Shown here: one piece after another, positions 15,767 to 48,601 of the stretch | Layout: each line of letters begins with the position of its first letter | How positions within the stretch are numbered: position 1 is the first letter of the stretch | From: Ignavibacteriota bacterium | GTDB taxonomy: Bacteria; Bacteroidota; Ignavibacteria; UBA10030 | Assembly (NCBI GenBank): GCA_963701295.1 | Contig: OY969585.1 | Coordinates: forward strand, 1,696,001-1,760,000 | Direction of reading: 5' to 3' | Length of the DNA: 64,000 nucleotides | Notes under the pieces: generated by a model | What the model saw: only the letters and a program-made list of their open reading frames with translations | Told to the model about the DNA's origin: nothing | Databases searched by the model: none | Program-made: the position numbers and the translations under genes

Positions 15767-15776
15767 TTAGTTACGT

Positions 15777-18726: not shown

Positions 18727-18741
18727 CATCCATCAGAATTT

Positions 18742-21405
18742 ATGAATTCTAACAATGTTAAAAATATTCTTCAATCGAAAAGAAATCTAAATAAGACGCT
18801 TCAACTGCCTGATAAATCGAACGCAATGGAAGCTGAAGGCGGGTGCGGTGTTGTAGGATTTTGTTGCACCGAGCCGGTTCCGGGGAAGCATATTCACGAA
18901 CCTTCAAGATTGATGCATAACCGCGGCAACGGCAAAGGCGGCGGAATAGCAGCGGTTGGTTTTATTCCCGATCAATTAGGCGTATCAAGGGAAATGCTCG
19001 ACGATTGTTATATGCTCCATATTGCATATCTTGACCCTTCCGCTCGTCCCGATGTTGAAAAAAAATATGTTGATCCTGTGTTCGATATAAAAAAATCCGC
19101 TAAGCTCAATACGGTCGACGATTGGAAAAGTGTTCCCGGGCTTGAAGTCAAACCGCCCGATGTTTACCGATATTTCGTACGTGTTCAAGACAGCGTTCTA
19201 AGTAAATTTATATCTGAAAACACTTTTGCAAACATTGACCGGCGAGATGTTGAAGATGAGTTGGTCAACCAAAACAGTTTCAAACTTAACCATGAATTTT
19301 ATGTTGCTGCAAAAAAGCAGACGGCTTTTGTCATGTCGCATGGCCGTAATATTATGATCCTGAAAGTTGTCGGTTATGCTGAAGCGGTAACTCAATATTA
19401 TAAGATTGATGATCTTTGTGCTCATGTCTGGATTGCACATCAAAGGTATCCGACAAGAGGCCGGGTCTGGCATCCGGGCGGTGCCCATCCATTTACTGCA
19501 ATGAATATGGCGCTTGTACACAATGGCGATTTTGCAAATTATCATTCAGTAACGGAATATTTAAAACAGCGCAATATTTATCCACAGTTTATAACCGATA
19601 CAGAAGTGTCGGCACAGATGTTCGATTTGTTGTCGAGAATATACAAATATCCGGTAGAATATATAATAGAAGCATTAGCGCCAACGACAGAACTTGACTT
19701 TGACCGCCTGCCGAAGGAAAAGCGGGAAATCTACCGGGCAATTCAATCGACACATATGCACGGTTCCCCGGACGGGCCATGGTTCTTTATCATTGCACGT
19801 AATCTTATTGAGAACCGCAAATTCCAATTGCTGGGCATCACAGATACAGCAATGCTGAGACCGCAGGTCTTTGCATTTGTCGACGGCGAAGTTCAAGTCG
19901 GAATTATCGGCTCCGAAAAACAGGCAATTGATGCGACGCTTGAGAGTCTAGCAAAGAATGATAAACGAATTTGTCCAATTGCTGATAAATACTGGAATGC
20001 CAGAGGTGGGAGCTATTCCGACGGCGGAGCTTTTATGTTCGATATTGTTCCAGATAGTGAAGGCAAATACAGGCTGGAGTGTAAAGATAAATTCGGAACC
20101 CCGGTTGTAATAGCAGAAAAAATCGAAAGCTGTGATTTTACAAAAGAAATTCCGGATGCGACGAATAAGGAACAAATCGAAAAAATAATTAACGAATATG
20201 CTTCTGCGGGAAAATATATTTTTGAATTTGTCAGGGACAACATTCCGCAATGGTCATTCGACGATATCCGTATTGCATGTCGGGCTATGAGAGACCTCGG
20301 CAAAGACAGTGAATTCACATTATATACAATCAATACCCTGACTTTATTAAATGACAGGCATTATCAGACAGGTGATAAAAGACGGTCACACATTCTTCAA
20401 ATAATTCGGACCGAACTGAATTCATTATTCATGAATATTCCAAGGTTGCGTTCTGAAAATGATGAATCGTCTGAGTACCGCCTGTTCGATTTTGAAACAA
20501 GAAGCGAGCTGCGTGGACCAAAAGACAAAGAAAAAACACTGGTGATAAATTCGAAAAAATTTCCGCCGGAAGGCAATGAATGCGATGCGATGTATCTTGT
20601 CAGAGCTTACAAATTAGGTTGGAAGAATTTTATCCTCTTTCATTGCGCAGGCCAACGTTATGTCGGATGCGGTTTCGGACCCGAAACTCATGACCTGACA
20701 ATCGACATTTACGGGAGTTCCGGCGATTATCTTGGTTCCGGTATCGATGGAATGACTATAACCGTTCATGGCAACGCCCAGGACCAGTTAGGCCAGATAA
20801 TAAAGCAAGGAAAATTAGTTATTCATGGTGATGTCGGCCAAACATTTTTATACGGCGCCAAAGGAGGTTCTATATTTGTGAAAGGAAACGCCGCTGGCCG
20901 GCCAATGATTAATTCTGTCGGAAGGCCCAGGATTGTTATCAATGGCACAAGTCTCGATTTTCTCGGCGAATCATTTATGGCGGGCGATCCTCATAATAAA
21001 GGTGGGTTTGTGATCCTCAACGGTATGAAGTTTAATGAAGAAGGCCAAGTCGTACCTCTGCCGGAACCATATCCGGGAAGCAACCTTTTTTCTCTTGCAT
21101 CAGGAGGCGCAGCTTTTATTAGGGATCCTAAGCGGCAATTAATTACAGAACAGTTAAACGGCTGCATTTTTTCTCCCTTTACGGAAAAAGATTGGGAATT
21201 GATAGTACCATATCTGACGGAGAACGAAAAGCTCTTCGGAATTAAAGTAGATGATTTACTGACAGTAAATGGTAAAAAACTTAATCCGATGAAAGTTTAT
21301 CGCAAAGTTTCACCCAGTATCGAGGGCACTCCATCTACGCCTGAACAAGATGTTTATGGAGAAGAGGAGGAAGTCGATGAACTCGCCGAAGAAGTACTTG
21401 AATAA
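18742..21405 (+). CDS. Glutamate-synthase-related class II glutamine amidotransferase fused to a GXGXG beta-helix domain
   Basis: Propeptide then EGG|CGVVG (Ntn Cys); HNRG, AHQRYPT, AHPF, HNGDFAN, TDTE, DGPW, LRP; C-terminal GSSGDYLGSG..GNAQD..GDVG..YGAKGG repeats. Confidence 0.88.
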   Translation: MNSNNVKNILQSKRNLNKTLQLPDKSNAMEAEGGCGVVGFCCTEPVPGKHIHEPSRLMHNRGNGKGGGIAAVGFIPDQLGVSREMLDDCYMLHIAYLDPSARPDVEKKYVDPVFDIKKSAKLNTVDDWKSVPGLEVKPPDVYRYFVRVQDSVLSKFISENTFANIDRRDVEDELVNQNSFKLNHEFYVAAKKQTAFVMSHGRNIMILKVVGYAEAVTQYYKIDDLCAHVWIAHQRYPTRGRVWHPGGAHPFTAMNMALVHNGDFANYHSVTEYLKQRNIYPQFITDTEVSAQMFDLLSRIYKYPVEYIIEALAPTTELDFDRLPKEKREIYRAIQSTHMHGSPDGPWFFIIARNLIENRKFQLLGITDTAMLRPQVFAFVDGEVQVGIIGSEKQAIDATLESLAKNDKRICPIADKYWNARGGSYSDGGAFMFDIVPDSEGKYRLECKDKFGTPVVIAEKIESCDFTKEIPDATNKEQIEKIINEYASAGKYIFEFVRDNIPQWSFDDIRIACRAMRDLGKDSEFTLYTINTLTLLNDRHYQTGDKRRSHILQIIRTELNSLFMNIPRLRSENDESSEYRLFDFETRSELRGPKDKEKTLVINSKKFPPEGNECDAMYLVRAYKLGWKNFILFHCAGQRYVGCGFGPETHDLTIDIYGSSGDYLGSGIDGMTITVHGNAQDQLGQIIKQGKLVIHGDVGQTFLYGAKGGSIFVKGNAAGRPMINSVGRPRIVINGTSLDFLGESFMAGDPHNKGGFVILNGMKFNEEGQVVPLPEPYPGSNLFSLASGGAAFIRDPKRQLITEQLNGCIFSPFTEKDWELIVPYLTENEKLFGIKVDDLLTVNGKKLNPMKVYRKVSPSIEGTPSTPEQDVYGEEEEVDELAEEVLE

Positions 21406-21429
21406 TAAAAATATATTTTCGAAATAAAT

Positions 21430-21978
21430 ATGCCCATAGTCATTAGTAAAGAAAAGTCAGAAACTACTTTATTGCAGACTGTCAAGGAACAATCCGGCGT
21501 CGATATCTCTGGATGTCTGCAATGTAAAAAATGCACCAACGGCTGTCCGGTAACAGCGCTGGTTAAAGTACCTCCTTCGGAAATAATTAGAAGGCTGCAA
21601 TTGAACGCAGACGATTCGATCTTAAACAGCGATCTGGTATGGATGTGTGCTTCGTGTGAAACATGTTTTTCCCGTTGCCCGATGCAAATCGATATGGCAG
21701 CTGTTATGGATGCTCTGCGGATCATCTCGGTCAAGAAAAACGCATCCAAGCAGAAGGGCAATGTTCCACTATTTAACCGATGGTTTCTGAAAACAATTAA
21801 CATATTTGGCAGGACATATGATCTGGGAATGATTGCAGCTTATAAGATTGGAACTGCGAGCTATTTCCAGGACACGGATAAATTTCCAATGATGCTTCAA
21901 AAAAGGAAGATAGCGTTATTCCCGTCTTTCAAAGCCGATAAAAAATATGTAAAAAGAATATTCAAGAAAAAGAAGTAA
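21430..21978 (+). CDS. hdrC: Heterodisulfide reductase subunit C-like
   Basis: CLQCKKCTNGCP and WMCASCETCFSRCP; directly upstream of hdrB. Confidence 0.9.
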   Translation: MPIVISKEKSETTLLQTVKEQSGVDISGCLQCKKCTNGCPVTALVKVPPSEIIRRLQLNADDSILNSDLVWMCASCETCFSRCPMQIDMAAVMDALRIISVKKNASKQKGNVPLFNRWFLKTINIFGRTYDLGMIAAYKIGTASYFQDTDKFPMMLQKRKIALFPSFKADKKYVKRIFKKKK

Positions 21979-22047
21979 TGCAGACCCTTTCCCGGCTTTG
22001 TAGAATTTAAGAAAGTCCGGAAAAAAGTTTTGGAGAATTATAAGAAA

Positions 22048-22917
22048 ATGAAATATGCGTATTATCCTGGATGTTCGGCGGAGTCAACGGCACGCGACCA
22101 ATATATGTCGATTCGAGAAGTCTCGAAAGCTTTGGACATAGAATTGATTGAACCAAAGGGTTGGACTTGCTGCGGATCGACACCGGCTCACCACACAGAC
22201 AGAATTCTATCTTTTGCTCTTCCTGCAGCCAACCTGCTCATGGCCAAAAAAATGGGTCTCGATATGGTTGTATTTTGTGCAGCCTGCTATAACAGAATGA
22301 AAGTCGCCAATTATGAAATTCGAACAAACCTCAAAGTCAGAAAAGAAATATCGGATTCATTGGGAGAAGATTACGATGGTAGTGTGGATGTTCATCATTT
22401 TGTAGAAGTGCTTATCAAGGATATTGGAATTAAAAAGCTGCAGGAAATCTTCACACATTCGTTGGATGGATTAAAAGTGGTCAATTACTATGGCTGTCTG
22501 CTCGTACGGCCGCATAAAGCGACTAATTTTGACGATCCTGAAAATCCAATGATGATGGACAGCCTTGTTACGATCATGGGCGGCGAGAGCATCGATTGGC
22601 CCCATAAAGTTGAATGCTGCGGTGGAGGATTTGCTCTCACACGGACAGATATCGTCATCGAACTTTCCAACTCCATTTTGGGGATGGCAAAAGCAGCCGG
22701 AGCGCAATGTATGGCGGTAGCCTGTCCTATGTGCCAGGTAAATTTAGATTTAAGGCAAAGCGATATAAATAAAACAAAAGGCACAAACTATGATATCCCG
22801 ATTGTTTATATAACTCAGCTTGTGGGATTATGTTTAGGAGTTCCTCCCGAAAAGCTGGGTATGGATAAATGTATTGTCTCTCCAAAGCCGATTATTGAGG
22901 CTGTAATAAGCAATTAA
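22048..22917 (+). CDS. hdrB: Heterodisulfide reductase subunit B-like (two CCG domains)
   Basis: YYPGCS, WTCCGS, CAACY, YYGCLL, ECCGGG, ACPMCQ. Confidence 0.92.
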   Translation: MKYAYYPGCSAESTARDQYMSIREVSKALDIELIEPKGWTCCGSTPAHHTDRILSFALPAANLLMAKKMGLDMVVFCAACYNRMKVANYEIRTNLKVRKEISDSLGEDYDGSVDVHHFVEVLIKDIGIKKLQEIFTHSLDGLKVVNYYGCLLVRPHKATNFDDPENPMMMDSLVTIMGGESIDWPHKVECCGGGFALTRTDIVIELSNSILGMAKAAGAQCMAVACPMCQVNLDLRQSDINKTKGTNYDIPIVYITQLVGLCLGVPPEKLGMDKCIVSPKPIIEAVISN

Positions 22918-22934
22918 CAAAGAAAGATTTATTC

Positions 22935-25900
22935 GTGAAGATTGAAAAGAAAAAGATGACAGGCGCTGTATTGGTTGAAGGCGGAGGTATTGCGGGTGTT
23001 CAGGCGTCTCTCGATCTTGCTAATTCAGGATACAAAGTCTACCTAGTAGACCGCTCTGCAGCTATCGGCGGTATGATGTCTCATCTCGATAAAACTTTTC
23101 CTACAGGCGATTGTGCAACATGTATCGTTTCGCCTAAACTGGTTGAATGTTCCAGAAATCTTAATATTGAAATTCTCACACTTTCGGAATTAGAAAAAAT
23201 TGAGGGGGAACCGGGGAATTTTAAAGTCACGGTAAAAAAATCACCGCGATACATCGATGAAAAAATCTGCAACGATTGTGGCGAATGCACAAAAGCATGC
23301 CCTGTCGATGTAAGCGATAAGTTTAACCGCGATCTTAGTACACGAAAAGCGATACAAAAGTATTATGCGCAGGCTGTTCCCAACAAACCTAATATATTGA
23401 AACTTGGACATTCACCCTGTAAAATAAAATGTCCGGCTCATATCAATGTTCAGGGATACATTCAATTAATCAAAAAGAAAGAATATCTCAAAGCCGTAAA
23501 TCTTATTCGTGAAAGAAATCCGCTTGCCGCTATATGCGGACGGATCTGCCCTGCTCCATGCGAGGCAGCCTGCACGCGCTCCAAAGTCGACAGCTCACTG
23601 GCCATCAGACAATTAAAAAGATTCGCATCCGATCAGGAAATAAAATTGTATAGATCCGGGAAGTTGACACTGCCCGAACAAAAGAATCCTCCTTCAGATG
23701 CCAAGAAAATCGCCATTGTAGGCGGCGGGCCAGCAGGATTAACTGCGGCAGGCGATTTAGCCGAAAAAGGATTCACTGTAACTATATATGAATCGAGGGA
23801 TTCTGCGGGAGGAATGCTTTATTGCGGGATTCCCCGATATAGACTTCCAAAAGATATACTTGATTATGAAATAGAGTTAATAAAACGTAAGGGCGTTCAA
23901 ATTATTCTGAATTGTACTATCGGTAAGGACAAAGTTTTTTCAGAATTGAAAAAAGAAAATAGTGCAGTGTTTATCAGTGCCGGTGCGCATATCAGCAGAA
24001 AATTAGGCATAAGTGGCGAAGATAAAAAAGGTGTGAACTATGGGGTAGAATTCCTCAGGCAGGCAGCGAACGAAAAGAACATGCCGCAGGTCAAGGAAAA
24101 TGTTGTGGTTATCGGTGGAGGAAATGTCGCAGTTGATGTAGCCAGAACAGCACTGAGACTTGGCGCTAACAGAGTTGAACTCATCTCGCTCGAGCAGCGC
24201 AATGAAATGCCTGCATATAAAGATGAGATTAAGGCAACCCTCGAGGAAGGGATTGTGATACGAAACGGATGGGGTCCGAAACAAATACTCGGCAATGGAT
24301 CTGTTACAGGAATAGAACTGAAACAATGTATTTCCGTATTCGATACAGACGGCAAGTTTAAACCGTCTTACGATGAAAACAAAACTTCTACAATCGATAC
24401 CGAGCAGGTAATTGTAGCTATCGGTCAAATGGTCGACGGCGATCTAACCAAGCACATCGGAATCGATATCGAACGCGGATGTTTCAAAGCAAATCCTGTC
24501 ACACTTGAAACTTCGATGGAAGGAATCTTTGCAGGCGGCGATAATGCATCCGGACCGGGTAGCGTCATAGAAGCTGTCGCCGCTGGAAAACGTGCCGCGG
24601 AATCGATCAGCCGCTATCTCAACCATGAAGATTTGCTGCCCGACCGGTTTGAACATTCGCTGAAACCATTTCCGGAAGAATTGCTCCCCTCTGCAAAGAG
24701 GGTCGCAAAAAAGAACCGTGCTTCAGCCGATGAACTTACAGTTGACAAACGCATAAATAATTTTAACGAGATTGAATATCCTTTTTCAGAAGAAGATGCA
24801 ATTGGGGAAGCTGAAAGGTGCTTGAACTGCGCTCAATGCTCTGAATGTATGGAATGTATTTCGGCGTGCGAAAAGAAAGCAGTCAATCACAGTATGAATG
24901 AGAAAAAAGTAGAATTGGAAGTAGGCGCAGTCATACTTACTACTGGCTTCGATGAATATGATGCAGAGCAAAAAGGAGAATACGGATTTAACCGCTATCA
25001 GAATGTTCTTACCAGTGTCCAATTTGAGCGAATGCTTTCCGCTGCAGGACCGTATCTCGGCCATGTTGTGCGCAGGGACAATGGCAAAGATGCAAAACGG
25101 ATAGCATGGATTCAATGCGTGGGTTCCCGCGATTCAAAATCCGGAAACGAATACTGCTCATCCATATGCTGTATGGCGACGACCAAACAAGCCATGATTG
25201 CTTCCGAGCATCTGAACGGGCTGCAGGGAACGATCTTTAACATGGATATCAGGGCGCATGGAAAAGATTTCGATCAGTATTATGAACGCGCGCGCGCAAT
25301 GAAGAATATCGAATATATTAAAAGCATGCCTTCTCGAATTATTGAGATGCCCGGTTCGAACGATTTGAGAATAACCTATGTAGATCCTGTACAAGGATAC
25401 ACGGAGAAGGAGTTTGATCTCGCAGTGTTGGCAGTCGGTCTGGATCCGAAAATTTCGGTTACTGAAAGTGCGCGCAAACTTGGAATTGAAATTAATGAAC
25501 ACGGGTTTTGCAAAACAGACAGGCTGTCGCCACTGGCTACCTCTAAACCAGGCGTATTTGTAGGAGGAGCGTTCCAGGAGCCAAAGGATATTCCTGAAAC
25601 AGTTATACAGGCAAGTGCTGCTGCTGCAATGGCGATGGAATTATTGTCGCCTTCACAAAATACATTAGTTACTTCAAGAGAATATCCGTACGAACATGAT
25701 GTTACCGATGAAAAGCCCAGAATAGGCGTATTTATTTGTCATTGCGGCATCAATATAGCAGGTACTGTCGATGTAGAAAAAGTAACGGAATCGATTAAGA
25801 GCGAACCCGGAGTCGTATTTGCTTCACATACGATGTATACTTGCTCCGATTCTAGTTTATCGAATATGAAAGAGCAAATAGCAAAGGACAGGTTAAATAG

Positions 25901-27392
25901 GATCGTCGTGGCTTCGTGTACTCCGAGAACACATGAGCCTATCTTCCGTGAAACCTTGAGGGAAGCGGGGCTTAATCCTTACTTATTTGAACTGGCAAAC
26001 ATCAGGGATCAATGTTCATGGGTGCATTCATCTGAACCTAAAAATGCAACTCTCAAAGCAGTCGAGCTTGTAAAGATGTCCATCTCGAGGGCATTCAGGC
26101 TCATGCCTCTTGAAGGAGAAAAAATTCCAATTCACCAGAATGCTGTTATCGTCGGAGGAGGCGTAAGCGGGATGTCCGCGGCATTATCGCTCGCCGAGCA
26201 AGGATATGATGTCGAGTTGATCGAAAAGTCTTCCCAGTTAGGCGGAAATTTGTCTCTTGTCCACTCTACTCTCGAAAACGAGAACATCGATAAGTTCAAA
26301 ACTGATCTTATTGAGAAAATCAGTACACATAGAAACATCGACTATCATCTGAATTCTACAGTTGAAAGCGTTACGGGTCATATTGGGGAATTTAAAATTA
26401 ATATTATGAAGGACGACAAACCGAAAGAATTTACCTGCGGGGCTATAATAATTGCAACAGGCGCAAGGCCCGCCGAGACAAAAGAATATACTTATGGAAC
26501 TATCAAAAATGTAAAAACACAAATAGAATTAGAGAGTTTGCTTAATAAAGGCAAAATTGAAAAAAGAGGCCAGACGTATGTGATGATCCAATGTGTGGGT
26601 TCGCGCAATTCGGAAAATCCATATTGCAGCAGAATTTGCTGTTCCATGGCGATCAAGAATGCATTAAGAATTAAAAGAGAAGATCCTGCTGCAAGCATTT
26701 ATGTCCTATACAGGGACATCAGAACGTATGGTTTTAGGGAAATATATTATAAGCATGCACGTGAAGCCAATGTGGTTTTCATAAGATATGATGAAAAGAA
26801 TCTGCCTGTCGTATCTGATGTGAACGGTGTGTTGAGTTCGGTGAAAGTGGAAAGTCCGGATTTTCCAGAACCTATTGTAATAGAAGCCGATCAGCTTATC
26901 CTAAGCACAGGAATAAAAGCCGAGAAGGACAATAAAGTCCTTTCAGATATGCTTAAGGTGCCGCTCAATGCGAACGGATTTTATGTTGAAGCCCACATGA
27001 AATTGAGGCCCGTGGATTTTGCTACAGAAGGATTGTTTGTATGCGGATTGGCCCATTCACCAAAAATGATAGACGAGAATATTTCACAGGCGAAAGCTGC
27101 CGCTGCTCGTGCTGCAACGATTTTATCAAAAACCCATTTGGAAGTAGGAGCACAGGTTTCGATTGTAAATCAAAATAAATGCATATCGTGTATGACATGT
27201 GTGAATGCCTGTCCGTATGGCGCTCCATACTGCAATTATAACCACAAAGCAGAAATTGAAAGAGCGAAGTGTATGGGCTGTGGAATATGCGCATCTGAAT
27301 GCCCTGCACGTGCAATTCAACTTAATCATTTCAAGTCAGTACATTTCAATGCCATGATAGACAATTTATTTCATGTAGAAGAAACCGTATAA
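22935..27392 (+). CDS. hdrA: Large HdrA-family flavoprotein (HdrL type): two HdrA modules with an inserted GltD/NfnB-like NAD(P)H oxidoreductase
   Basis: GGGIAG, DKTFPTGDCATC; insert CPAHINVQGY..ICGRICPAPCE, GGGPAG, GGGNVA; QCVGSR twice; CSSICC and CSRICC; IGVFICHCGINIAG, CTPRTHE, NIRDQCSWVH; C-terminal 2x[4Fe-4S]. Confidence 0.92.
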   Translation: MKIEKKKMTGAVLVEGGGIAGVQASLDLANSGYKVYLVDRSAAIGGMMSHLDKTFPTGDCATCIVSPKLVECSRNLNIEILTLSELEKIEGEPGNFKVTVKKSPRYIDEKICNDCGECTKACPVDVSDKFNRDLSTRKAIQKYYAQAVPNKPNILKLGHSPCKIKCPAHINVQGYIQLIKKKEYLKAVNLIRERNPLAAICGRICPAPCEAACTRSKVDSSLAIRQLKRFASDQEIKLYRSGKLTLPEQKNPPSDAKKIAIVGGGPAGLTAAGDLAEKGFTVTIYESRDSAGGMLYCGIPRYRLPKDILDYEIELIKRKGVQIILNCTIGKDKVFSELKKENSAVFISAGAHISRKLGISGEDKKGVNYGVEFLRQAANEKNMPQVKENVVVIGGGNVAVDVARTALRLGANRVELISLEQRNEMPAYKDEIKATLEEGIVIRNGWGPKQILGNGSVTGIELKQCISVFDTDGKFKPSYDENKTSTIDTEQVIVAIGQMVDGDLTKHIGIDIERGCFKANPVTLETSMEGIFAGGDNASGPGSVIEAVAAGKRAAESISRYLNHEDLLPDRFEHSLKPFPEELLPSAKRVAKKNRASADELTVDKRINNFNEIEYPFSEEDAIGEAERCLNCAQCSECMECISACEKKAVNHSMNEKKVELEVGAVILTTGFDEYDAEQKGEYGFNRYQNVLTSVQFERMLSAAGPYLGHVVRRDNGKDAKRIAWIQCVGSRDSKSGNEYCSSICCMATTKQAMIASEHLNGLQGTIFNMDIRAHGKDFDQYYERARAMKNIEYIKSMPSRIIEMPGSNDLRITYVDPVQGYTEKEFDLAVLAVGLDPKISVTESARKLGIEINEHGFCKTDRLSPLATSKPGVFVGGAFQEPKDIPETVIQASAAAAMAMELLSPSQNTLVTSREYPYEHDVTDEKPRIGVFICHCGINIAGTVDVEKVTESIKSEPGVVFASHTMYTCSDSSLSNMKEQIAKDRLNRIVVASCTPRTHEPIFRETLREAGLNPYLFELANIRDQCSWVHSSEPKNATLKAVELVKMSISRAFRLMPLEGEKIPIHQNAVIVGGGVSGMSAALSLAEQGYDVELIEKSSQLGGNLSLVHSTLENENIDKFKTDLIEKISTHRNIDYHLNSTVESVTGHIGEFKINIMKDDKPKEFTCGAIIIATGARPAETKEYTYGTIKNVKTQIELESLLNKGKIEKRGQTYVMIQCVGSRNSENPYCSRICCSMAIKNALRIKREDPAASIYVLYRDIRTYGFREIYYKHAREANVVFIRYDEKNLPVVSDVNGVLSSVKVESPDFPEPIVIEADQLILSTGIKAEKDNKVLSDMLKVPLNANGFYVEAHMKLRPVDFATEGLFVCGLAHSPKMIDENISQAKAAAARAATILSKTHLEVGAQVSIVNQNKCISCMTCVNACPYGAPYCNYNHKAEIERAKCMGCGICASECPARAIQLNHFKSVHFNAMIDNLFHVEETV

Positions 27393-27394
27393 AG

Positions 27395-27868
27395 ATGAAT
27401 GATAAGACTTTTGAACCGAAAATAATAGCCTTTTGCTGCCATTACTGTGCTTATGCATCGGCCGATTTGGCCGGTTCGATGCGGCTGCAATATCCATCAG
27501 GAGTGCGTATAATTCGTACACCCTGCACAGGTAGACTCGAAGTGGAATATTATATGAGAGCATTTGAAAACGGCGCCGATGGTGTTCTGGTAGCCGGCTG
27601 TCTTGAAGGCGGATGTCATTTTATAGAAGGAAATTTATTAGCTAAAAAGAGGGTCAGCGCTACCAGGGACATCCTTCAAGAAAGCGGTATTGAAAAAGAA
27701 CGCCTGCGAATGGTAAACATATCTGCAGCAATGGCTACTAATTTAGCAGCAGTCATCAACGAGATGGTAAACACAATTAAAGAACTCGGTCCCAATCCTA
27801 TTCGAAAGACAAATAACGGGCCGGAGGTTGAATATAAAGAATTTGAAATGCTTAAATCACAGCAATAA
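27395..27868 (+). CDS. mvhD: MvhD [2Fe-2S] protein
   Basis: AFCCHYCAYASADLAG, PCTGR, GADGVLVAGCLEGGCHF. Confidence 0.92.
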   Translation: MNDKTFEPKIIAFCCHYCAYASADLAGSMRLQYPSGVRIIRTPCTGRLEVEYYMRAFENGADGVLVAGCLEGGCHFIEGNLLAKKRVSATRDILQESGIEKERLRMVNISAAMATNLAAVINEMVNTIKELGPNPIRKTNNGPEVEYKEFEMLKSQQ

Positions 27869-27894
27869 ATTATTATGAACAAAATGGATTTACC

Positions 27895-28563
27895 ATGATA
27901 GTCGCTCAACGGAAAAAAATACCGGAAATATTTAATGTCATTCAAGAGCATAAAAATGTCTTGGTTCTCGGATGTGGCACGTGTGTTACTGTATGCCTTG
28001 CCGGGGGCGAACGTGAAGTTTCAATCATATCCTCGGCGCTCAGAATTGCATCTCGCAAAGCTGGTAAGAAAATTAAAGTCAACGAATTTACTATCGAACG
28101 CCAATGCGACAATGTTTTTATAGAAGGCGCTGCTGAAGAAATCAAAAATAACGATGCGGTCCTTTCATTAGGCTGCGGAGCAGGAGTACAGGCAATAGCG
28201 GAACGTTACCCCGATATGCCGGTATATGCAGGTCTTGATACTGCGTTTCTTGGTATACTCGAATCGAGAGGTGTATGGACGGAAAAATGCATGCAATGCG
28301 GGACTTGTGTTCTTTCTGATTTTGGCGGGATATGCCCGGTGACACGATGTGCAAAACACATGCTCAATGGTCCTTGCGGCGGCTCTCGTGAAGATAGATG
28401 TGAAATTAGGGCCGATCAACCATGCGCGTGGCAACTCATTTATAAGAGATTAAAGAATATCAATCAGTTAGATAAAATTGCTAAGGAGCATCCTATTAAG
28501 GATCGGAGCAAAAGCATTGATGGCGGTGTCCGAACAATTATTCGCGAGGATCACAGGATATGA
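27895..28563 (+). CDS. metV: MetV, methylene-THF reductase Fe-S/Zn small subunit (MTHFR_C domain)
   Basis: GCGTCVTVCLAGG, RQCD, GCGAGVQ, CMQCGTC, GICPVTRCAKHMLNGPCGG, PCAW. Confidence 0.9.
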   Translation: MIVAQRKKIPEIFNVIQEHKNVLVLGCGTCVTVCLAGGEREVSIISSALRIASRKAGKKIKVNEFTIERQCDNVFIEGAAEEIKNNDAVLSLGCGAGVQAIAERYPDMPVYAGLDTAFLGILESRGVWTEKCMQCGTCVLSDFGGICPVTRCAKHMLNGPCGGSREDRCEIRADQPCAWQLIYKRLKNINQLDKIAKEHPIKDRSKSIDGGVRTIIREDHRI

Positions 28564-36701: not shown

Positions 36702-37733
36702 TCAGGTGTTCAAGACCTTAGATGACTGTCTGACAATAAATTCTGTCTCTAAAATAACTCGTTCAATCGGCATAATCGTCGAAGATTCGATATTACGGAT
36801 TAAAATTTCTGCAGCCATTATTCCAATCTCTTGTTGAGGTGCCCTTATTGTTGTCAGGGGAATTGGATACATTTTCGCATAATAAATATCATCGTTTCCA
36901 ATAATAGATATATCGTCGGGTACGCGAATATTGAGTTCCTTCAATGCCAGCATAACTGCAAGAGCTTGCTGATCATTGAAACAAACAATTGCGGTCGGGT
37001 AATTATCACGGTTTCTATTCTTAAAATACTCGAGGGTTTTATCAAAACATTCTTCAAAATGAGATCCCACCGAGATGATCATATCTTTATGAAAGACCAA
37101 TGTGCTTTCACTGAAAGCATAACGGAATCCTTCCATTCGTTCTTGTGTATGTGATGACTGTGGAGGACCTGCAAAATGTACAATTTTTGTGTGACCGCTA
37201 TCTATTAAATATTTCACTGCTCTTTTTATTGCCTTTTTGTTGTCAATTGCCACAACGTTTGCTTGAATCCCCTTAACATCTTCTAATAAGACAAAAGGAT
37301 AATTAATCATTTTTAGTTTAAAAAGATGTTCAATTTCAGCTGTTCCTTCAACTATGGGAGCGATAATAATGCCTTTGATATCCTTCGTGGAGAAAAGCCG
37401 AGATAAATTCTTTTCACTTTCATGACTGTCATCTGAACTGGAAACAATGACAGAATATCCTTTGCTGTTTGCATATTCACTTACACCTTTTGCTATCGTA
37501 GTGTAGAAAGGATAAGTTAAATCCTTGATGATTATTCCAATACTTTTATCATAGTTTTCATTTTTAAAATTTCTTGCCACACCGTTGGGACGGAAGTTGA
37601 GTTCTTTCATTACTTCTAATATGAAATCTCTTGTTGCTGGCTTGACCGTTTTCTTCGCATTTATGACAGCAGAAACAGTTCCTTTTGAAACTCTCGCTCG
37701 CTTAGCAACATCCTCAATGGTTATCTTTTTCAT
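36702..37733 (-). CDS. LacI-family transcriptional regulator (LacI-1)
   Basis: TIEDVAKRARVSKGTVSAVIN HTH; FRPNGVA; CFNDQQA; VPDDISIIG; LTTI. Confidence 0.95.
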   Translation of the reverse strand: MKKITIEDVAKRARVSKGTVSAVINAKKTVKPATRDFILEVMKELNFRPNGVARNFKNENYDKSIGIIIKDLTYPFYTTIAKGVSEYANSKGYSVIVSSSDDSHESEKNLSRLFSTKDIKGIIIAPIVEGTAEIEHLFKLKMINYPFVLLEDVKGIQANVVAIDNKKAIKRAVKYLIDSGHTKIVHFAGPPQSSHTQERMEGFRYAFSESTLVFHKDMIISVGSHFEECFDKTLEYFKNRNRDNYPTAIVCFNDQQALAVMLALKELNIRVPDDISIIGNDDIYYAKMYPIPLTTIRAPQQEIGIMAAEILIRNIESSTIMPIERVILETEFIVRQSSKVLNT

Positions 37734-37899: not shown

Positions 37900-37913
37900 T
37901 TGAAACAGTTCAA
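37900..37913. promoter_or_regulatory. Predicted LacI-1 operator TTGAAACAGTTCAA
   Basis: Imperfect palindrome, identical to 38012-38025 and 13/14 identical to 48588-48601. Confidence 0.7.
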
Positions 37914-37983: not shown

Positions 37984-38025
37984 TTGCTATTACAATGGAA
38001 CATCTTTAGTATTGAAACAGTTCAA
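37984..38025 (+). promoter_or_regulatory. Promoter (TTGCTA-17-TAGTAT) overlapped by LacI-1 operator 38012-38025
   Basis: -35 at 37984-37989, -10 at 38007-38012, immediately followed by TTGAAACAGTTCAA. Confidence 0.7.
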
Positions 38026-41825: not shown

Positions 41826-41879
41826 TTGACATTTAGAAAAAAAATCATTACTTACACGAGTAAGTAATCGAGTAAGTAA
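41826..41879 (+). promoter_or_regulatory. Promoter with palindromic operator TTACTTAC-ACGA-GTAAGTAA (predicted LacI-2 site)
   Basis: TTGACA at 41826-41831; palindrome 41848-41867; direct repeat CGAGTAAGTAA at 41857 and 41869. Confidence 0.65.
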
Positions 41880-41886
41880 GGATATT

Positions 41887-42900
41887 ATGGCATTTCATAC
41901 TCAAACAGATATCGCAAATAAACTCAAAGTCTCACGCGTGACAATTTCAAAAGCTCTTCGGGATCATCCTGATATTTCTCCTGAAATGAAAAGGCGTGTG
42001 AAAGAAGCTGCCGAAGAATTTGGATATACTCCAAATCTTATCGCTAAAAACTTAACCACAAAGAAAACTCTCACCATTGGAATTGTTGTTCCCGATCTTG
42101 AAAATAGTTTTTTTTCATATGCCGTAGATAGTATAATCGATGCTGCTTCGGAACATCATTACCATACGATTCTTACAGTCTCGAGGGAAAACGAGCAGAA
42201 TGAAAAGTCTAACATTCAAAGTTTGATAGGTATGCGAGTCGACGGGTTATTGGTCTGCGTCTCTCAACGTACGTCCGATCCTCATGTCTTCGAAGAAGTG
42301 AAAAAAAAGAATATTCCATTTGTTTTCTTTGATCGTCAACTAGAAGGGATAGGTTTTAAAAGTATCACATTCAATGACAAGATTGGTGCAATCGATGCTC
42401 TAGATCAAATCATTAAAAATGGGTATTCACGCATTGCACACTTTGCTGGATATATGAATGTTAGCATCGGCCAGAAACGGTGTGAAGGATATAGAAACGC
42501 TTTAGAGAATAATGGATTGAAGGTTGATCCGGCTTGGATTCTTGAGGCAGGATTTGAAATACAGGACGGATACAATTCCTTCATGAAATTATATCAAACA
42601 AAGAAAATACCTGAAATCATTTTTGCAGTGAATGATCGTGTGGCATTAGGTGCATACAAAGCGATACAGGAAGTTGGCATGGCCATTCCAAAAGATATCG
42701 GCATAATGGGATTTGGATTTAACGAAACCGCGCAGATGTTTTCACCGACATTGTCAATTATTCATCAAGATCCTCGTAAACTTGGAACTGCTGCGTTGAA
42801 TGTACTCATCGAAGAGATACAAAACATTGGTCAGAAAAAACCTCGTCAAGTTACTATAGAAGAAGAATTTATTTGGAACAATTCAATTATAAAAAAATAA
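41887..42900 (+). CDS. LacI-family transcriptional regulator (LacI-2)
   Basis: TQTDIANKLKVSRVTISKAL HTH; YTPNLIA; VDGL; FAVNDRVA; IPKDIGIMGF. Confidence 0.95.
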   Translation: MAFHTQTDIANKLKVSRVTISKALRDHPDISPEMKRRVKEAAEEFGYTPNLIAKNLTTKKTLTIGIVVPDLENSFFSYAVDSIIDAASEHHYHTILTVSRENEQNEKSNIQSLIGMRVDGLLVCVSQRTSDPHVFEEVKKKNIPFVFFDRQLEGIGFKSITFNDKIGAIDALDQIIKNGYSRIAHFAGYMNVSIGQKRCEGYRNALENNGLKVDPAWILEAGFEIQDGYNSFMKLYQTKKIPEIIFAVNDRVALGAYKAIQEVGMAIPKDIGIMGFGFNETAQMFSPTLSIIHQDPRKLGTAALNVLIEEIQNIGQKKPRQVTIEEEFIWNNSIIKK

Positions 42901-42916
42901 CATTGAGAATAAGATT

Positions 42917-43921
42917 ATGAAAAAAATCATTGTTGCTGGAGCCGGCGGGTTTATCGGCGGTCATTTGACAAAAGCATTGAGCACTATGGGGCACAAAGTG
43001 CGCGCAGTGGATATTAAACCGCTGAACAAATGGTATCAAGTTCATTCTGGCGTCGAAAATATGATCCTCGACTTGCGCGTCAAAGATAACTGTTATCAAG
43101 CAGTGAATGGTTGTAACGAGGTCTTCAATCTTGCAGCGGACATGGGTGGTATGGGATTTATAGAGACTCATAAAGCAGCATGCATGCTCAGTGTGTTGAT
43201 CAACACGCATATATTAATGGCAGCAAAGGACTGCGGGATTGACCGATTATTCTATGCATCATCTGCTTGTGTGTACAACGGAGAAAAGCAAACTGATCCC
43301 AACAATCCCGGACTCAAAGAAGCTGACGCATATCCGGCGCTTGCCGAAGATGGATATGGCTGGGAGAAACTATTCAGTGAACGCATGTGTCGTCATTTCA
43401 GTGAGGACTTTGGATTGGTGACACGTGTTGCACGATTTCACAATGTGTATGGACCGTTTGGCACATACGACGGTGGCAGAGAAAAAGCTCCGGCAGCTAT
43501 TTGCAGGAAGGTAATTGATGGGAAAATATATGGGAAGAAAGATATAGTGATTTGGGGGGACGGACATCAGACCAGAAGTTTTATGTACATCGATGATTGC
43601 GTCAAAGGTGTGCTTGATATTATGTACAGCACCATTATGGAACCGATCAATCTTGGTAGCAGTGAAATGGTTTCCATTAACCAATTAGTTGATTATGTGG
43701 AAGAGATTGCCAATTACAAGATGGAAAGGAAGTACGATCTGAAAGCGCCCAAAGGTGTTCGGGGACGCAATAGTGACAACACACTGATTAAGAAATATTT
43801 GGGCTGGGAACCATTCATCCCATTAAAGGTCGGACTAAAGAAAACGTATGATTGGATCAATGAACAAATGATGAGCAACAATGGAAAAGATAGCAAAGCA
43901 GTTGTATTCAATGAGAACTAA
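42917..43921 (+). CDS. GDP-mannose 3,5-epimerase-like extended SDR
   Basis: GAGGFIG, NLAADMGGMGFI, YASSACVY, YGWEK, RFHNVYGP, REKAPAAICRK, WGDG.QTRSF, PKGVRGRNSDN: the GME-type signatures. Confidence 0.85.
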   Translation: MKKIIVAGAGGFIGGHLTKALSTMGHKVRAVDIKPLNKWYQVHSGVENMILDLRVKDNCYQAVNGCNEVFNLAADMGGMGFIETHKAACMLSVLINTHILMAAKDCGIDRLFYASSACVYNGEKQTDPNNPGLKEADAYPALAEDGYGWEKLFSERMCRHFSEDFGLVTRVARFHNVYGPFGTYDGGREKAPAAICRKVIDGKIYGKKDIVIWGDGHQTRSFMYIDDCVKGVLDIMYSTIMEPINLGSSEMVSINQLVDYVEEIANYKMERKYDLKAPKGVRGRNSDNTLIKKYLGWEPFIPLKVGLKKTYDWINEQMMSNNGKDSKAVVFNEN

Positions 43922-43939
43922 GCCTTTGGAAACGATACA

Positions 43940-45076
43940 TTGAACGGAAAAAAAGTTCTCGTTAGCGGTTGTTATGATTTACTGCATGCTGGTCACATTG
44001 CTTTCTTCAAAACGGCCGCTCAGTTTGGCAAACTATTCGTAGCTGTCGGCGCGGATGAAAATGTTCGTTTGTTAAAAGGAAAGGCGCCATACTATTCTCA
44101 AGAAGAAAGAGTTTATATGGTTAACTCCGTCCGCTATGTCGAAAGCGCCTTTATTGCATCAGGTTCGGGTATGCTAGACTTTGGACCCGATATTGAACGG
44201 ATCAAACCCGATATTTTTATTGTGAACCACGATGGCCATACTCTAGACAAAGAAGCATTGTGCAAAAAATTCTGTATCGAATATAAAGTATTGGAAAGAA
44301 TTCCAGAACCGAGACTTCCGGTGCGGGCAAGTTCGTCTACAAAACAAGAATTACAATTTCCATATAGAATTTGTTTAGCCGGTGGTTGGATGGACCAACC
44401 ATGGGTTTCGGAAATTTATCCTGGTAGCGTTGTTGTTGCTCAATTGTGTCCGACAATTGAATTCAATGACCGTTCTGGTATGGCGACCAGTTCAAGAAAA
44501 ATCGCTGTTGAAATTTGGGGAAATAGACTTCCAGACGGAAATCCAATTAACAATGCAAGAATTTTATTCGGTGCTGAAAATCCTCCTGGTTCAAAGTACA
44601 TTTCCGGTTCACAAGATCACATTGGCTTGCTGAATCAGGGAATCAGCCGTCTTTATTATAAAGGCAAATATTGGCCTGATAAAATTGATTCTACAAGAGA
44701 CGAAGATATTTGCGATTGGCTTTCTAATGTAATTCATTTAATTCCCCTGGAACCTAGGCCGGTCGGCTATGATCCCCTCAAAGAGAAAAAACTTACTATC
44801 AACAATGTTAAAGAACTTGGCGATGCAGGCGAACAATGCTGGAAAAGCATTCTTCGGAAAGACGCCGCAGGTTTGGGCCAGTCGATGACAAAATCTTTTC
44901 TTGCATGGAAAAAGATGTTCCCTTACACTGTTCCGGAATATGTTATGAAAGAAATGGAAGAGAAATATTTACCTCATTATCTTGGTGCCATAACTTCTGG
45001 CAGTGGCGGAGGCTATATGGTTGTTGCGTCGGAAATAGAAATAGATGGATCTCTTAAAATCAAAGTTAGGTCATAA
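43940..45076 (+). CDS. Fusion of HxGH nucleotidyltransferase (cytidylyltransferase-like) and GHMP sugar kinase
   Basis: SGCYDLLHAGH at the N-terminus; PYRICLAGGWMD, GMATSS, GSQD and GSGGGY at the C-terminus. Confidence 0.8.
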   Translation: MNGKKVLVSGCYDLLHAGHIAFFKTAAQFGKLFVAVGADENVRLLKGKAPYYSQEERVYMVNSVRYVESAFIASGSGMLDFGPDIERIKPDIFIVNHDGHTLDKEALCKKFCIEYKVLERIPEPRLPVRASSSTKQELQFPYRICLAGGWMDQPWVSEIYPGSVVVAQLCPTIEFNDRSGMATSSRKIAVEIWGNRLPDGNPINNARILFGAENPPGSKYISGSQDHIGLLNQGISRLYYKGKYWPDKIDSTRDEDICDWLSNVIHLIPLEPRPVGYDPLKEKKLTINNVKELGDAGEQCWKSILRKDAAGLGQSMTKSFLAWKKMFPYTVPEYVMKEMEEKYLPHYLGAITSGSGGGYMVVASEIEIDGSLKIKVRS

Positions 45077-45167
45077 ATATTGAATAAATTCAAATGCTTT
45101 TACAAAACTGTATTTAAGATATATATATTTTTAGAATGCGTAGTCAATTATTTTAAAGGAAGTCATT

Positions 45168-46508
45168 ATGAATTTGTCCAAGATGTTTAAAACGGAAGAA
45201 GGTAAAAATTATGTATTCACGTTTGCACTCGTCAGCACATTATTCCTATTATGGGGAACTTGTAATGGAATGATCGATGTGATGGACAAGCACTTTCAGG
45301 ATCAGCTGCATCTGACGAAAGCACAGTCAGCATGGGTGCAGTTTGCACATTATTTGGGTTATCTTTTAATGGCCATGCCTGCAAGTTGGCTGGCGCGCAA
45401 ACTTGGTTATAAAGGCGGTATCATTTCAGGGCTGCTGCTCGTAGCGCTGGGCGGATTCTGGTTTGTCCCGGCTACATATATTTCGTCATTCTGGGCGTTC
45501 CTGCTGGGTGTGTGTGTCATCGCAATGGGATTGACAATTCTTGAGACGGTAGCTAATCCCTATACTACTGTGCTCGGTCCTAAGAACTTCGCAGCAGCGC
45601 GTATCAATTTTGCGCAATCGTTCAATGGCGTTGGTTGGATTTTCGGCCCGATCATTGGTGGAGTGTTCTTCTATTCTGCAGGTGGCTCAGAGGTCGCTCA
45701 AGGTCAACTCTACATTCCGTACCTTGCGGTGGCAGTCATCGTCCTTGCTATGTCCGTGGTCTTCTTCTTCGCCAACGTCCCCGACCTTAATACGGAGGAT
45801 GAGTATCACTTAAGTGATACAACTGCAACCAATGTCAAGCGGTCCATCTGGTCACACCCCCACTTCATCGGCGCAGTCGCAGCTCAGTTCTTATACGTCG
45901 CGGCGCAAGCGGGCATTTTTAGTTTTTTCATTAACTATATAACTGAGGAAATGCCTTCAATTTCGCATGGACTATCAAGCAGTTGGTTCTTTAAAGACCG
46001 CGCTATGTTGCGTGAAGGTGCTTACTACGTGAACGAGCAAGGAGCTACTTTTCTGCTCGGTACAATTGGATTTCCGCTCTTCCTGATCGGCCGCGCCACG
46101 GGGGCGGCAATTCTGAGGAAATTGAAAGCGCATCGGGTGCTGGGTACGTACGCAATTGCTAATGTTTTTCTCTGCGGCATTGTCATTCTTAGACTTGGTT
46201 GGATTTCGGTTGCAGCGATGTTTCTGAGTTTTTTTTTCATGTCGATTATGTTTCCGACGATATTCGCACTTGGTATCTACGGTCTTGGCGTACAGGCGAA
46301 GAGAGCATCAGGTTTCATCGTCATGGCTATTATTGGCGGAGCAATCATGCCGAAGCTTATGGGTTACCTCGGAGATGTCTACAATATGTCTGTCAGCTTT
46401 CTCATGCCACTAGGTTGCTTCGCGCTCATCGCGATGTATGGATATTCGTGGCCTAGACTGAGCAAGGCGGATGCTCAAGAAAGTTTTTCCAGTGTAAAAG
46501 GACACTGA
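45168..46508 (+). CDS. FucP-like MFS sugar:H+ symporter
   Basis: LFLLWG, LETVANPY, RINFAQSFNG, AQFLYVAAQ, MSIMFPTIF, VMAIIGGA. Confidence 0.9.
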   Translation: MNLSKMFKTEEGKNYVFTFALVSTLFLLWGTCNGMIDVMDKHFQDQLHLTKAQSAWVQFAHYLGYLLMAMPASWLARKLGYKGGIISGLLLVALGGFWFVPATYISSFWAFLLGVCVIAMGLTILETVANPYTTVLGPKNFAAARINFAQSFNGVGWIFGPIIGGVFFYSAGGSEVAQGQLYIPYLAVAVIVLAMSVVFFFANVPDLNTEDEYHLSDTTATNVKRSIWSHPHFIGAVAAQFLYVAAQAGIFSFFINYITEEMPSISHGLSSSWFFKDRAMLREGAYYVNEQGATFLLGTIGFPLFLIGRATGAAILRKLKAHRVLGTYAIANVFLCGIVILRLGWISVAAMFLSFFFMSIMFPTIFALGIYGLGVQAKRASGFIVMAIIGGAIMPKLMGYLGDVYNMSVSFLMPLGCFALIAMYGYSWPRLSKADAQESFSSVKGH

Positions 46509-46556
46509 ATGTGAAGGTAAGACAACATTAAGAAGAATTTTATCTTATTTCATAGG

Positions 46557-48112
46557 ATGAAAATTATTCAATAGAATCACAGACTATAACCAAACCGTCA
46601 GAGAACCCTCTCAAAGTATTTATTAATCCCCCCGAATGTGCAGAGCCTTGTGTTTTGTGGATGCGGATAGGGTCGAACATAAGTAAAGAAGGCATTACGA
46701 AAGATCTGGAAGCTTTGAAAAAAGCAGGATTTAAGAGAACAATTATGTTCAGTCTGGCAGATATTACTACTCCTTGGGTCAGTGAGTATAGACAAGAGCC
46801 CGACACCGGAAATTATTTCCTGGACAGAACCCTTGTGGAAATTGGTGCACCATGCAGTGGAAGAATCAGAACGCTTGGGTATGGATTTTGGCGTGTTCAA
46901 TGGCCCAAGTTATGAATCAAGCGGTGGTGTATGGATGACACCTGAGTTATCGATGCAGGAAATTTGCTGGTCTCAAAAAAGGAATGCCGGCGACAAACAT
47001 ATAAGTATAATTCTTGACCGGGCTTCTGTTGATCCCCATGCGAACCATCCTTATCCTTTATTTAATCCCAAAAACAGGCTTAGTAGAAAAGCCGATAATA
47101 GAGGCACGGAAAACGTACTACAAAGATATTACAGGTACTGGCAGTTCCGGCAAAGGGAATAGTTTCCCAAAAAGTATCATTAGTCTGACCGAAAAGATGA
47201 AATCAAATGGGTAGTTGGGATGGGATGCTCTAACCGGAGACTGGATAATCTATAGGTTTGGCTATACAACGGGGGGGCGTTAATACAGCCTGCACAATGG
47301 AAGGCGACAGGTTTAGAATGCGATAAAATAAGCCAGAATGCAGTAGATTTCCACATGAATCATGTGTGATAGGTGAAATTCGAATTTAAAGTATATTCAC
47401 AGAAATAGTGATAAATATGGATGTATATTTTGTTGCGAATACAGCTTGCGAAGCCGGTTCTGCAACTTATACTTTTAAAATATTGGGGATGCAACCTGAT
47501 CTTTGGGACCTGTTACTGGAGCGATGCGAAGTCTCTCACAATTTGAAATCAGTAATGACATAACTTTAATTCCACTTAATTTTGCTGAGGCTCAAAGTTT
47601 TTTTTATCGTCTTTCGGAATAAATCTCCCAGTTCAGGTTCAAGTGGAAAAAGTATTTTTCCTTCCATGAAAGAAATAGTGACTATTAATGAACCATGGCA
47701 GGTTCAATTTGATTCTGCATAGGGAAGTCCTGCCAAACCTGTTACTTTTACAACACTCATTGACTGGACAAACCATCCTGAACCAGGCATTAAGTACTTT
47801 AGTGGTACAGCAGTTTACCAAACATCGTTCGATATACCTACTTCACAAATCTCAGATAAACTTTCTGTATTGAAGTCACTAATGTATGGGTCAACCGCTT
47901 ATAGGAAACGAACAGGAGCCCGCTGATTGCAAATGGTCAGCAGGTCATTTTGGAGGTTCCTTTTTACAAGAATTCCCTGATCGGTTCCTAAAAAATCAAT
48001 CTCGCCCTTCTAAGGAGGATATTGTTCTACAACTTGGAATTATTTTACCAACGATTCCTCATTAATTCCTTCCGGTTTGTTAGGACCCGCGAGGATAATG
48101 GCAGGGGATTAA
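46557..48112 (+). pseudogene. GH106 alpha-L-rhamnosidase-like pseudogene
   Basis: Fragments in shifting frames: FINPP, NISKEGITKDLEALKKAG, SSGGVWMTPELSMQ, GLECDK, DVYFVAN, IKYFSGTAVY, NRLIG, PSGLLGP. Many frameshifts and stops, plus large internal deletions. Confidence 0.8.
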
Positions 48113-48559: not shown

Positions 48560-48601
48560 TTGACATTTAAAGTCAAGATTTATTACATTGAAACGGTTCA
48601 A
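48560..48601 (+). promoter_or_regulatory. Promoter (TTGACA-18-TACATT) overlapped by LacI-1 operator TTGAAACGGTTCAA (48588-48601)
   Basis: Same operator placement as at 38012; a weaker site ACAAAGCGTTTCAA lies at 48650-48663. Confidence 0.7.

Follow-up and report, generated by a model that had tools for sequence, protein, structure and literature searches.

We analysed a 64,000-nucleotide stretch of the genome of an Ignavibacteriota bacterium (contig OY969585.1, positions 1,696,001 to 1,760,000; hereafter the window), in which a LacI-family regulator, a homologue, termed GME-A, of the enzyme GDP-mannose 3,5-epimerase (abbreviated GME), a nucleotidyltransferase-kinase fusion protein and a FucP-type permease are encoded in one unit. 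The four genes probably form an L-galactose-inducible operon that would run from L-galactose through L-galactose-1-phosphate and GDP-L-galactose to GDP-D-mannose, with exit via ManC. What was observed comprises the order and families of the genes, their folds, the conservation of residues, the patterns of linkage and a conserved palindrome, and from these we infer every substrate, nucleotide, flux direction and regulatory response. The permease would import L-galactose, a rare plant and algal sugar, the kinase domain of the fusion would form beta-L-galactose-1-phosphate, and its nucleotidyltransferase domain would form GDP-L-galactose, which GME-A would convert to GDP-D-mannose. The latter would either feed the mannose/fucose glycan pool or be split in reverse by a pyrophosphorylase of the ManC type, giving GTP and mannose-1-phosphate, which phosphomannomutase and PGI/PMI would carry on to fructose-6-phosphate. 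GTP would cycle in the way that UTP cycles in the Leloir pathway's pyrophosphorylase form. A first-pass annotation of this DNA had proposed the same succession as far as GDP-D-mannose; among the readings considered, it is the one best supported by the comparative evidence, with the GDP-activation step resting on context because the HIGH-fold relatives found use CTP or ATP.

The four genes lie intact on the + strand, separated by gaps of 16, 18 and 91 nucleotides (Table 1). The LacI, GME-like epimerase, nucleotidyltransferase-GHMP kinase fusion, FucP-like permease and glycosidase relic described by the first-pass annotation were all five recovered on that strand by Pfam/NCBIfam and structure searches. 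Gene annotation likewise bore out its remark on missing glycosyltransferase and export genes, none of which were found within the four-gene unit. The permease scored above the NCBIfam cut-off for TIGR00885 fucP (291.5 bits; cut-off 280.4).

The epimerase is, judged by its sequence, a GDP-mannose 3,5-epimerase homologue. Its best solved relatives were the plant GMEs (Table 1), and the next family followed at an E value of 3e-28. The catalytic residues of GME are reported to comprise a Ser/Tyr/Lys triad, a Cys145/Lys217 acid-base pair and Arg306, whereas GMER carries His and Lys instead (PMC8787198). Residues S116, C118, Y147, K151, N176, K190, R220 and R284 of GME-A correspond to S143, C145, Y174, K178, N203, K217, R243 and R306 of AtGME, and all eight were invariant in 77/77 GME-A sequences and in 7/7 sequences of a second type, GME-B. 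The triad (S116/Y147/K151), the acid-base pair (C118/K190), R284 and the Asn203/Arg243 counterparts are thus complete, and the last position of the GxxGxx(G/A) motif was G in 66/77 and A in 11/77 GME-A sequences. Residues K198, W213 and Q218 were also kept in 77/77; their AtGME counterparts K225, W236 and Q241 presumably take part in GDP binding. The host genome, a single 3.64-Mb contig that is 99% complete, holds a second GME of the GME-B type (C1:2933769-2934734, 45% identity). It sits in a surface-polysaccharide cluster upstream of gmd- and fcl-like genes, a setting which suggests that L-galactose or L-gulose occurs in a surface glycan.

The fusion consists of an N-terminal HIGH-type nucleotidyltransferase (residues ∼1-135) and a compact fucokinase-like GHMP kinase (∼135-378). 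The C-terminal domain had no Pfam match and the kinase domain alone retrieved nothing significant from the PDB by sequence, therefore a fold search was needed. In a structure model built from 35 sequences (alignment A1; predicted local distance difference test score, pLDDT, 84), the kinase domain matched WcbL (Z 21.6, root-mean-square deviation (rmsd) 3.0, 238 aligned), the FKP kinase (Z 20.2, rmsd 2.9, 225 aligned, 21% identity) and galactokinase (Z 20.0), and the HIGH domain resembled TagD (2B7L) and HldC (5XF2), which were among its best fold matches. The HxGH motif is present as H16-x-G18-H19, and the score against TIGR02199 (HldE/HldC-type) was 50 bits, below the cut-off of 181.5. This HIGH, cytidylyltransferase-like fold is unlike that of the known GDP-sugar pyrophosphorylases; PF07959 was not found in the host genome, and the fusion carries PF01467 instead. 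The family is large, with 5039 matches among 8000 scored, and bears only automatic cytidylyltransferase names in the ESM Atlas.

The sugar contacts of FKP are largely shared by the kinase domain. FKP R592, W599, D601, G759, Q761 and D762 correspond to fusion R143, W150, D152, G223, Q225 and D226, which were at least 95% conserved in both clades described below, and E213 (FKP E751) was invariant in alignment A1. R143, W150 and D152 were placed by HMMER alignment to FKP 589-618 and the other counterparts by motif match. The contacts to fucose-1-phosphate were retained, except that T602 is replaced by Q153. FKP itself takes only sugars that are L-galacto configured from C2 to C5, and L-galactose is among those it phosphorylates, with a Km of 3345 µM compared to 34 µM for fucose, ∼100-fold weaker (PMC11982464).

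Related loci were obtained from a genome scan with the window fusion (best 80 of 157), a metagenome scan with the second fusion copy of the host (best 80 of 283) and genome samples. After dropping six loci without a fusion frame of at least 300 residues, one unrelated kinase row and nine duplicates, 198 loci were kept; neighbourhood counts refer to genes within 6 kb and GME-A adjacency to 600 bp. The closest relatives, among the best 80 of 157, came from Ignavibacteria and Bacteroidota. Identity to the window fusion split without overlap into type A (61-100%, n=85) and type B (42-49%, n=113), a division with a FastTree support of 1.0 (197 sequences). Surveying the conservation of the gene set, as the first-pass annotation had advised, we observed GME-A beside the fusion in 82/85 type-A and 1/113 type-B loci. 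The LacI gene (50/85 vs 3/113), GH29a (39/85 vs 0/113), GH95 (12/85 vs 2/113), ManC (33/85 vs 6/113), mutarotase (27/85 vs 12/113) and transporter (34/85 vs 22/113) were likewise more frequent near type A, whereas gmd or fcl (0/85 vs 23/113), FucI (0/85 vs 4/113) and GME-B (0/85 vs 6/113) were found near type B only. Many type-B loci are short; the pattern holds when restricted to loci flanked by 3 kb or more on each side (GME-A 57/59 vs 1/29, GH29a 30 vs 0, gmd/fcl 0 vs 5). LacI, transporter, mutarotase and GH95 near type A, with gmd/fcl absent, mark a scavenging unit. The first-pass annotation had held that gene sets confined to capsule or lipopolysaccharide (LPS) loci would speak against its route, and no such confinement was seen for type A, where gmd/fcl lay near none of the 85 loci.

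Three type-A loci lacked the adjacent epimerase. In L045, GME-A is on the contig of the fusion at a distance of 21 kb, and it was not found in the genomes of L065, where transposase remains lie upstream, and L069, where a contig end is 321 bp away. GME-A was found in 0/80 genomes that lack type A, of which 50 carry type B only (in part assigned just from the profile score) and 30 are fusion-free; five of the 80 hold a distant GME at 44-52%. The sole type-B locus with GME-A (L140:4252-8953) is a tandem of type-B fusion, GME-A, type-A fusion and FucP.

Fixed kinase differences between type A and type B (84 vs 113 sequences) include D145C, Q323W, K350A and the glycine loop. Four type-C proteins keep the motif-1 Asp and the motif-3 Lys, therefore type A looks derived relative to types B and C. 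Type C (L237-L240) is a third, stand-alone family of 449-residue HIGH and GHMP kinase proteins with ∼30% identity to type B, and weak matches to it occurred in 16/301 Bacteroidales-level genomes (4 examined). From its gmd/fcl neighbours, type B is suggested to resemble a fucose-salvage enzyme. The host type-B fusion (L002; C1:1217273-1218421, 46%) directly follows a class II aldolase gene, a pair that recurs in the close relatives L128-L131, and four other type-B frames (L153, L220, L224, L228) reach 566-606 residues with an added N-terminal stretch.

The glycosidases near type A offer a further view of the substrate. Three GH29a members from different subgroups, out of 42 in the family, were checked for relatedness, and the best solved relative of each was BpGH29 (E 1.2e-149, 9.5e-109 and 1.8e-83), the next enzymes scoring 6.9e-75, 2.8e-88 and 2.2e-60, respectively. 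BpGH29 (7LJJ, 7SNK) is an exo-alpha-L-galactosidase, and GH29 L-galactosidases are confined to a narrow part of the GH29 family tree. The GH29a neighbours thus appear closest to alpha-L-galactosidase, a nearness to BpGH29 that falls short of proving activity, and the GH29 subgroup near type A differs from that near type B. Among 13 type-A genomes, nine carry a further candidate for fucose salvage, a type-B fusion in seven and Fkp in two; salvage of fucose thus seems to be handled by a different enzyme, which speaks against type A having that role. Fkp was found in 0/47 type-B genomes, 4/50 controls and 0/16 type-C genomes, which is weak evidence that type B excludes it. L-galactose is borne by corn xylan (PMC4491172), which fits the xylan-degrading genes around the operon. 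The GH95 and GH29 genes of the host lie elsewhere, in glycosidase clusters, and eight aldo-keto reductase genes, which may bear on an oxidative L-galactose route, are present in the genome.

The first-pass annotation did not cover how carbon would leave GDP-mannose, a step that requires an enzyme of the ManC type; such a gene was seen in 33/85 type-A loci and is absent from the host operon. The operon ManC proteins form a separate paralogue, with a mean identity of 61% among themselves and 35-41% to other ManC. Three of five type-A genomes hold this paralogue together with a second ManC (37-38%), and two hold the second kind only. The host genome has one unlinked ManC (42%), three PGM/PMM-family genes and PGI/PMI; FucI was not found there with the queries used. 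In the genome of L051, an operon-type ManC occurs with FucP on a separate contig (L248:2045-4537), away from GME-A and the fusion.

The operon LacI probably binds the palindrome that precedes its gene (Table 1); a second half-site follows just after the first site, at 41869-41879. The palindrome is the sole site in the host genome at no more than 3 mismatches, with a matrix score of 32.6 compared to 15.8 for the next site. It recurs within the same mismatch limit in 8 related type-A loci, in most of which it lies ∼1.07 kb upstream of the epimerase gene, as in the window. A wider regulon in the host was considered and rejected, as a second operator site is absent from the genome. The promoter scan called none upstream of the LacI gene; TTGACA nonetheless occurs at 41826-41831. 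A 12-bp near-palindrome, which may be a second operator, is common to 37901-37912, 38013-38024 and 48589-48600, preceding a divergent LacI (36702-37733)/GH43 pair and a GH3 gene; its 4 matches in the window, compared to 2.2 expected, are not above chance.

Several observations, given in this and the following two paragraphs, weigh against the L-galactose route. GTP use by the HIGH-fold domain is its weakest step: the relatives found with this fold work with CTP or ATP, HIGH-fold heptose enzymes are reported with ATP, CTP and UTP, not GTP (PMC11573728), and no precedent for GTP use by a HIGH domain was found in the literature covered. The HIGH domain might instead make ADP-, CDP- or UDP-L-galactose that GME-A accepts, or a ManC-type enzyme might activate the sugar with GDP and leave the HIGH domain another job. 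We regard such chemistry as unlikely, though it agrees with the CTP or ATP use of the closest solved HIGH domains, with the ManC paralogue in 33/85 type-A loci and with R129, which is conserved in both clades. R129 occupies the arginine position of the (F/L)XXGRSTT (STTR5) motif, where type A has RASS and type B has RSTT, and an arginine before an STT-like motif marks NTP-promiscuous heptose nucleotidyltransferases (PMC11573728). The alternative chemistry is opposed by the 52/85 type-A loci without a nearby ManC, and by type B, whose gmd/fcl neighbours (23/113) and lack of Fkp (0/47 genomes) suit a GDP-fucose product. The retention of K198, W213 and Q218 in all GME-A sequences, given their presumed GDP-binding role, also speaks for the GDP-linked route.

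The linkage data have their own limits: similarity guided the choice of loci, which share ancestry, and the counts are therefore patterns and not independent trials. GME-B is paired with a type-B fusion in 6/113 loci (L108, L109, L139, L141, L170, L180), possibly as a parallel module, so the pairing of a GME with the fusion also occurs outside type A and may serve biosynthesis. L109 (7285-11602), from a same-genus genome, combines GME-B, type-B fusion, gmd and fcl in a capsule locus; LacI, aldolase or FucI accompany the pair in L139, L141 and L170, and mutarotase, FucP and GH95 also occur across the set. The capsule locus, the ManC genes beside type B in 6/113 loci and the reported link of bacterial GME to LPS (PMC6678494) would fit an operon that supplies a surface glycan with GDP-L-galactose both through salvage, by the fusion, and de novo, by ManC and GME, in the way that Fkp and Gmd/Fcl together serve fucose. 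This supply role seems improbable, since LacI, transporters and glycosidases take the place of gmd/fcl near type A and the host already has its second GME in a surface-polysaccharide cluster. A de novo epimerase under a sugar-responsive repressor would also be unexpected, and the glycosyltransferases near L025/L026 lie on the opposite strand, upstream of LacI.

The choice of sugar faces objections as well. FucP, RhaM-type mutarotases, GH29 and GH95 suit fucose equally well, and the host operon carries no ManC, GH29, GH95, mutarotase or any releasing enzyme. The operator was not found before the GH95 or GH29 genes of the genome, and no RhaM homologue was found there with the queries used. The motif-1 Asp and motif-3 Lys kept in type B are lost in type A (C145, A350). 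The GH95 Thr/His was tried as an L-galactose marker and rejected: Thr occupied the T370 position of the L-galactosidase BACOVA_03438 in 11/11 GH95 family-7 neighbours with the motif found (of 16), but it is shared by the fucose-specific XacAfc95 (PMC8245568), so it does not discriminate and is no evidence for L-galactose. The sole genetic evidence on the fusion architecture points to L-fucose: in Akkermansia muciniphila, D-arabinose is no longer toxic to mutants in Amuc_1591, and the wild type is rescued by L-fucose (PMC13313206). The fusion could accordingly make GDP-L-fucose, with GME-A turning it to GDP-D-rhamnose or being a passenger. FucP, mutarotase, GH29 and GH95 belong to the classical fucose genes, and FucI is located 6-8 kb off in L075, L080 and L084. 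We hold fucose salvage to be a poor candidate, given that a passenger GME-A would not persist in 82/85 loci, that a different enzyme could salvage fucose in nine of the 13 type-A genomes and that the GH29 subgroup is unlike that near type B. Furthermore, we know of no catabolic use for GDP-D-rhamnose. By fold, the WcbL heptokinase slightly outscores FKP (Z 21.6 vs 20.2), and with HldC among the matches, pocket changes peculiar to type A and the GDP-L-gulose and GDP-D-altrose that GME also gives (PMC8787198), the substrate might be a heptose or one of these other GME-linked sugars. This is very improbable: the kinase retains those FKP contacts by which the L-galacto configuration is selected, the annotated neighbours include no recurrent family of heptose isomerases or phosphatases, and the neighbouring GH29s are closest to L-galactosidase.

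The glycosidase relic that the first-pass annotation had counted as part of the unit is present, but it does not belong to the unit, as GH106 is not conserved in the related loci. It matches GH106 proteins of ∼835 residues at 42-77% in pieces; an intact frame of that length was not found, owing to frameshifts, stops and ∼300 missing residues. Compared to an 837-residue relative (P0121), residues ∼289-545 and 712-756, about 257 and 45 residues, are missing and the remainder is spread over three frames with stops. As a releasing enzyme it was rejected, distant GH106 genes occurring only in L045, L064 and L076 among the fetched loci, and by all signs it is a decayed bystander outside the conserved unit. 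L012, the nearest relative, has GH95 and GH2 genes behind its permease gene. The unit is flanked by xylan-degrading genes (GH43, glucuronoyl esterase, GH3, glycoside transporter, GH30), and no plasmid match for this DNA was found. Farther away, positions 14876-28563 hold a run of + strand genes whose N-termini, as we take them, resemble glutamate-synthase-like and heterodisulfide-reductase-like proteins.

Table 1. Features of the predicted L-galactose unit and adjoining relic, in window coordinates.
Feature	Position	Strand	Evidence
20-bp palindrome, central CG, probable LacI operator	41848..41867		1 match in window, 0.02 expected
LacI-family regulator, 337 residues	41887..42900	+	PF00356 + PF00532 (LacI + Peripla_BP)
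GME-A, GDP-mannose 3,5-epimerase homologue, 334 residues	42917..43921	+	NAD epimerase family; 2C59, E 4.5e-96
Type-A fusion, 378 residues, TTG start	43940..45076	+	PF01467 at residues 8-99; GHMP kinase by model
FucP-type sugar:H+ symporter (predicted), 446 residues	45168..46508	+	TIGR00885
GH106 (alpha-L-rhamnosidase family) pseudogene	46538..48109	+	PF17132 on two fragments

Taken as a whole, the system is quite possibly, if short of probably, a third bacterial L-galactose route: non-oxidative and GTP-cycling, with a HIGH-fold guanylyltransferase, an L-galactose-tuned mini-Fkp from a fucose-salvage ancestor, a catabolic GME and a dedicated ManC paralogue that would close the cycle at mannose-1-phosphate. 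The first-pass annotation knew of no earlier account of the route. No epimerase-linked L-galactose route was found described in open PubMed Central and bioRxiv, subscription papers lying outside that scope, but the fusion design itself was already proposed, in 2026, for Amuc_1591, with an adenylyl/cytidylyltransferase domain and a fucokinase-like domain (PMC13313206). If true, the route would operate in Bacteroidota of anaerobic soils, sediments and the sea, assign a role to a large family so far labelled just 'cytidyltransferase-like' and demonstrate that an enzyme of the HIGH fold can use GTP. A 378-residue activator preferring L-galactose would offer a small catalyst with which to make GDP-L-galactose, and the presence of type-A and type-B enzymes in one genome makes specificity directly testable.

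Several known systems share parts of this design. Fkp of Bacteroides fragilis (9IIP, 9IIT) has the kinase fold, sugar contacts and two-step activation in one chain in common with the fusion, but it measures ∼950 residues and carries PF07959, whereas the fusion has 378 residues and a HIGH domain and is coupled to an epimerase (PMC11982464). Amuc_1591 has the same architecture, likened here by its description and not by sequence; its genetics lead to fucose, it is proposed to serve LPS and is transcribed with murJ, and the text on it mentions an epimerase 0 times (PMC13313206). The plant and Methylacidiphilum GMEs (2C59, 8SG0) have all published catalytic residues in common with GME-A, and their roles are biosynthetic (ascorbate, cell wall, LPS), whereas GME-A stands in a regulated scavenging unit (PMC6678494, PMC8787198). 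Phocaeicola vulgatus and Luteolibacter LG18 have oxidative pathways for L-galactose, which share the predicted substrate, but these start with a dehydrogenase and proceed via D-tagaturonate and 2-keto-3-deoxygluconate (KDG), and such genes are absent from the operon (PMC12632266). The bacterial L-galactose routes found described are oxidative, and a nucleotide-sugar route would, if true, add a Leloir analogue for an L-sugar. The pyrophosphorylase variant of the Leloir pathway comprises a mutarotase, a GHMP-fold 1-kinase, nucleotide activation, a short-chain dehydrogenase/reductase (SDR) epimerase and exit by a second pyrophosphorylase. The predicted L-galactose route would share these elements, and it would differ in the L-sugar and the GDP carrier, in a double epimerisation at C3/C5 instead of C4, in the fusion of kinase and nucleotidyltransferase, and in mannose as the product.

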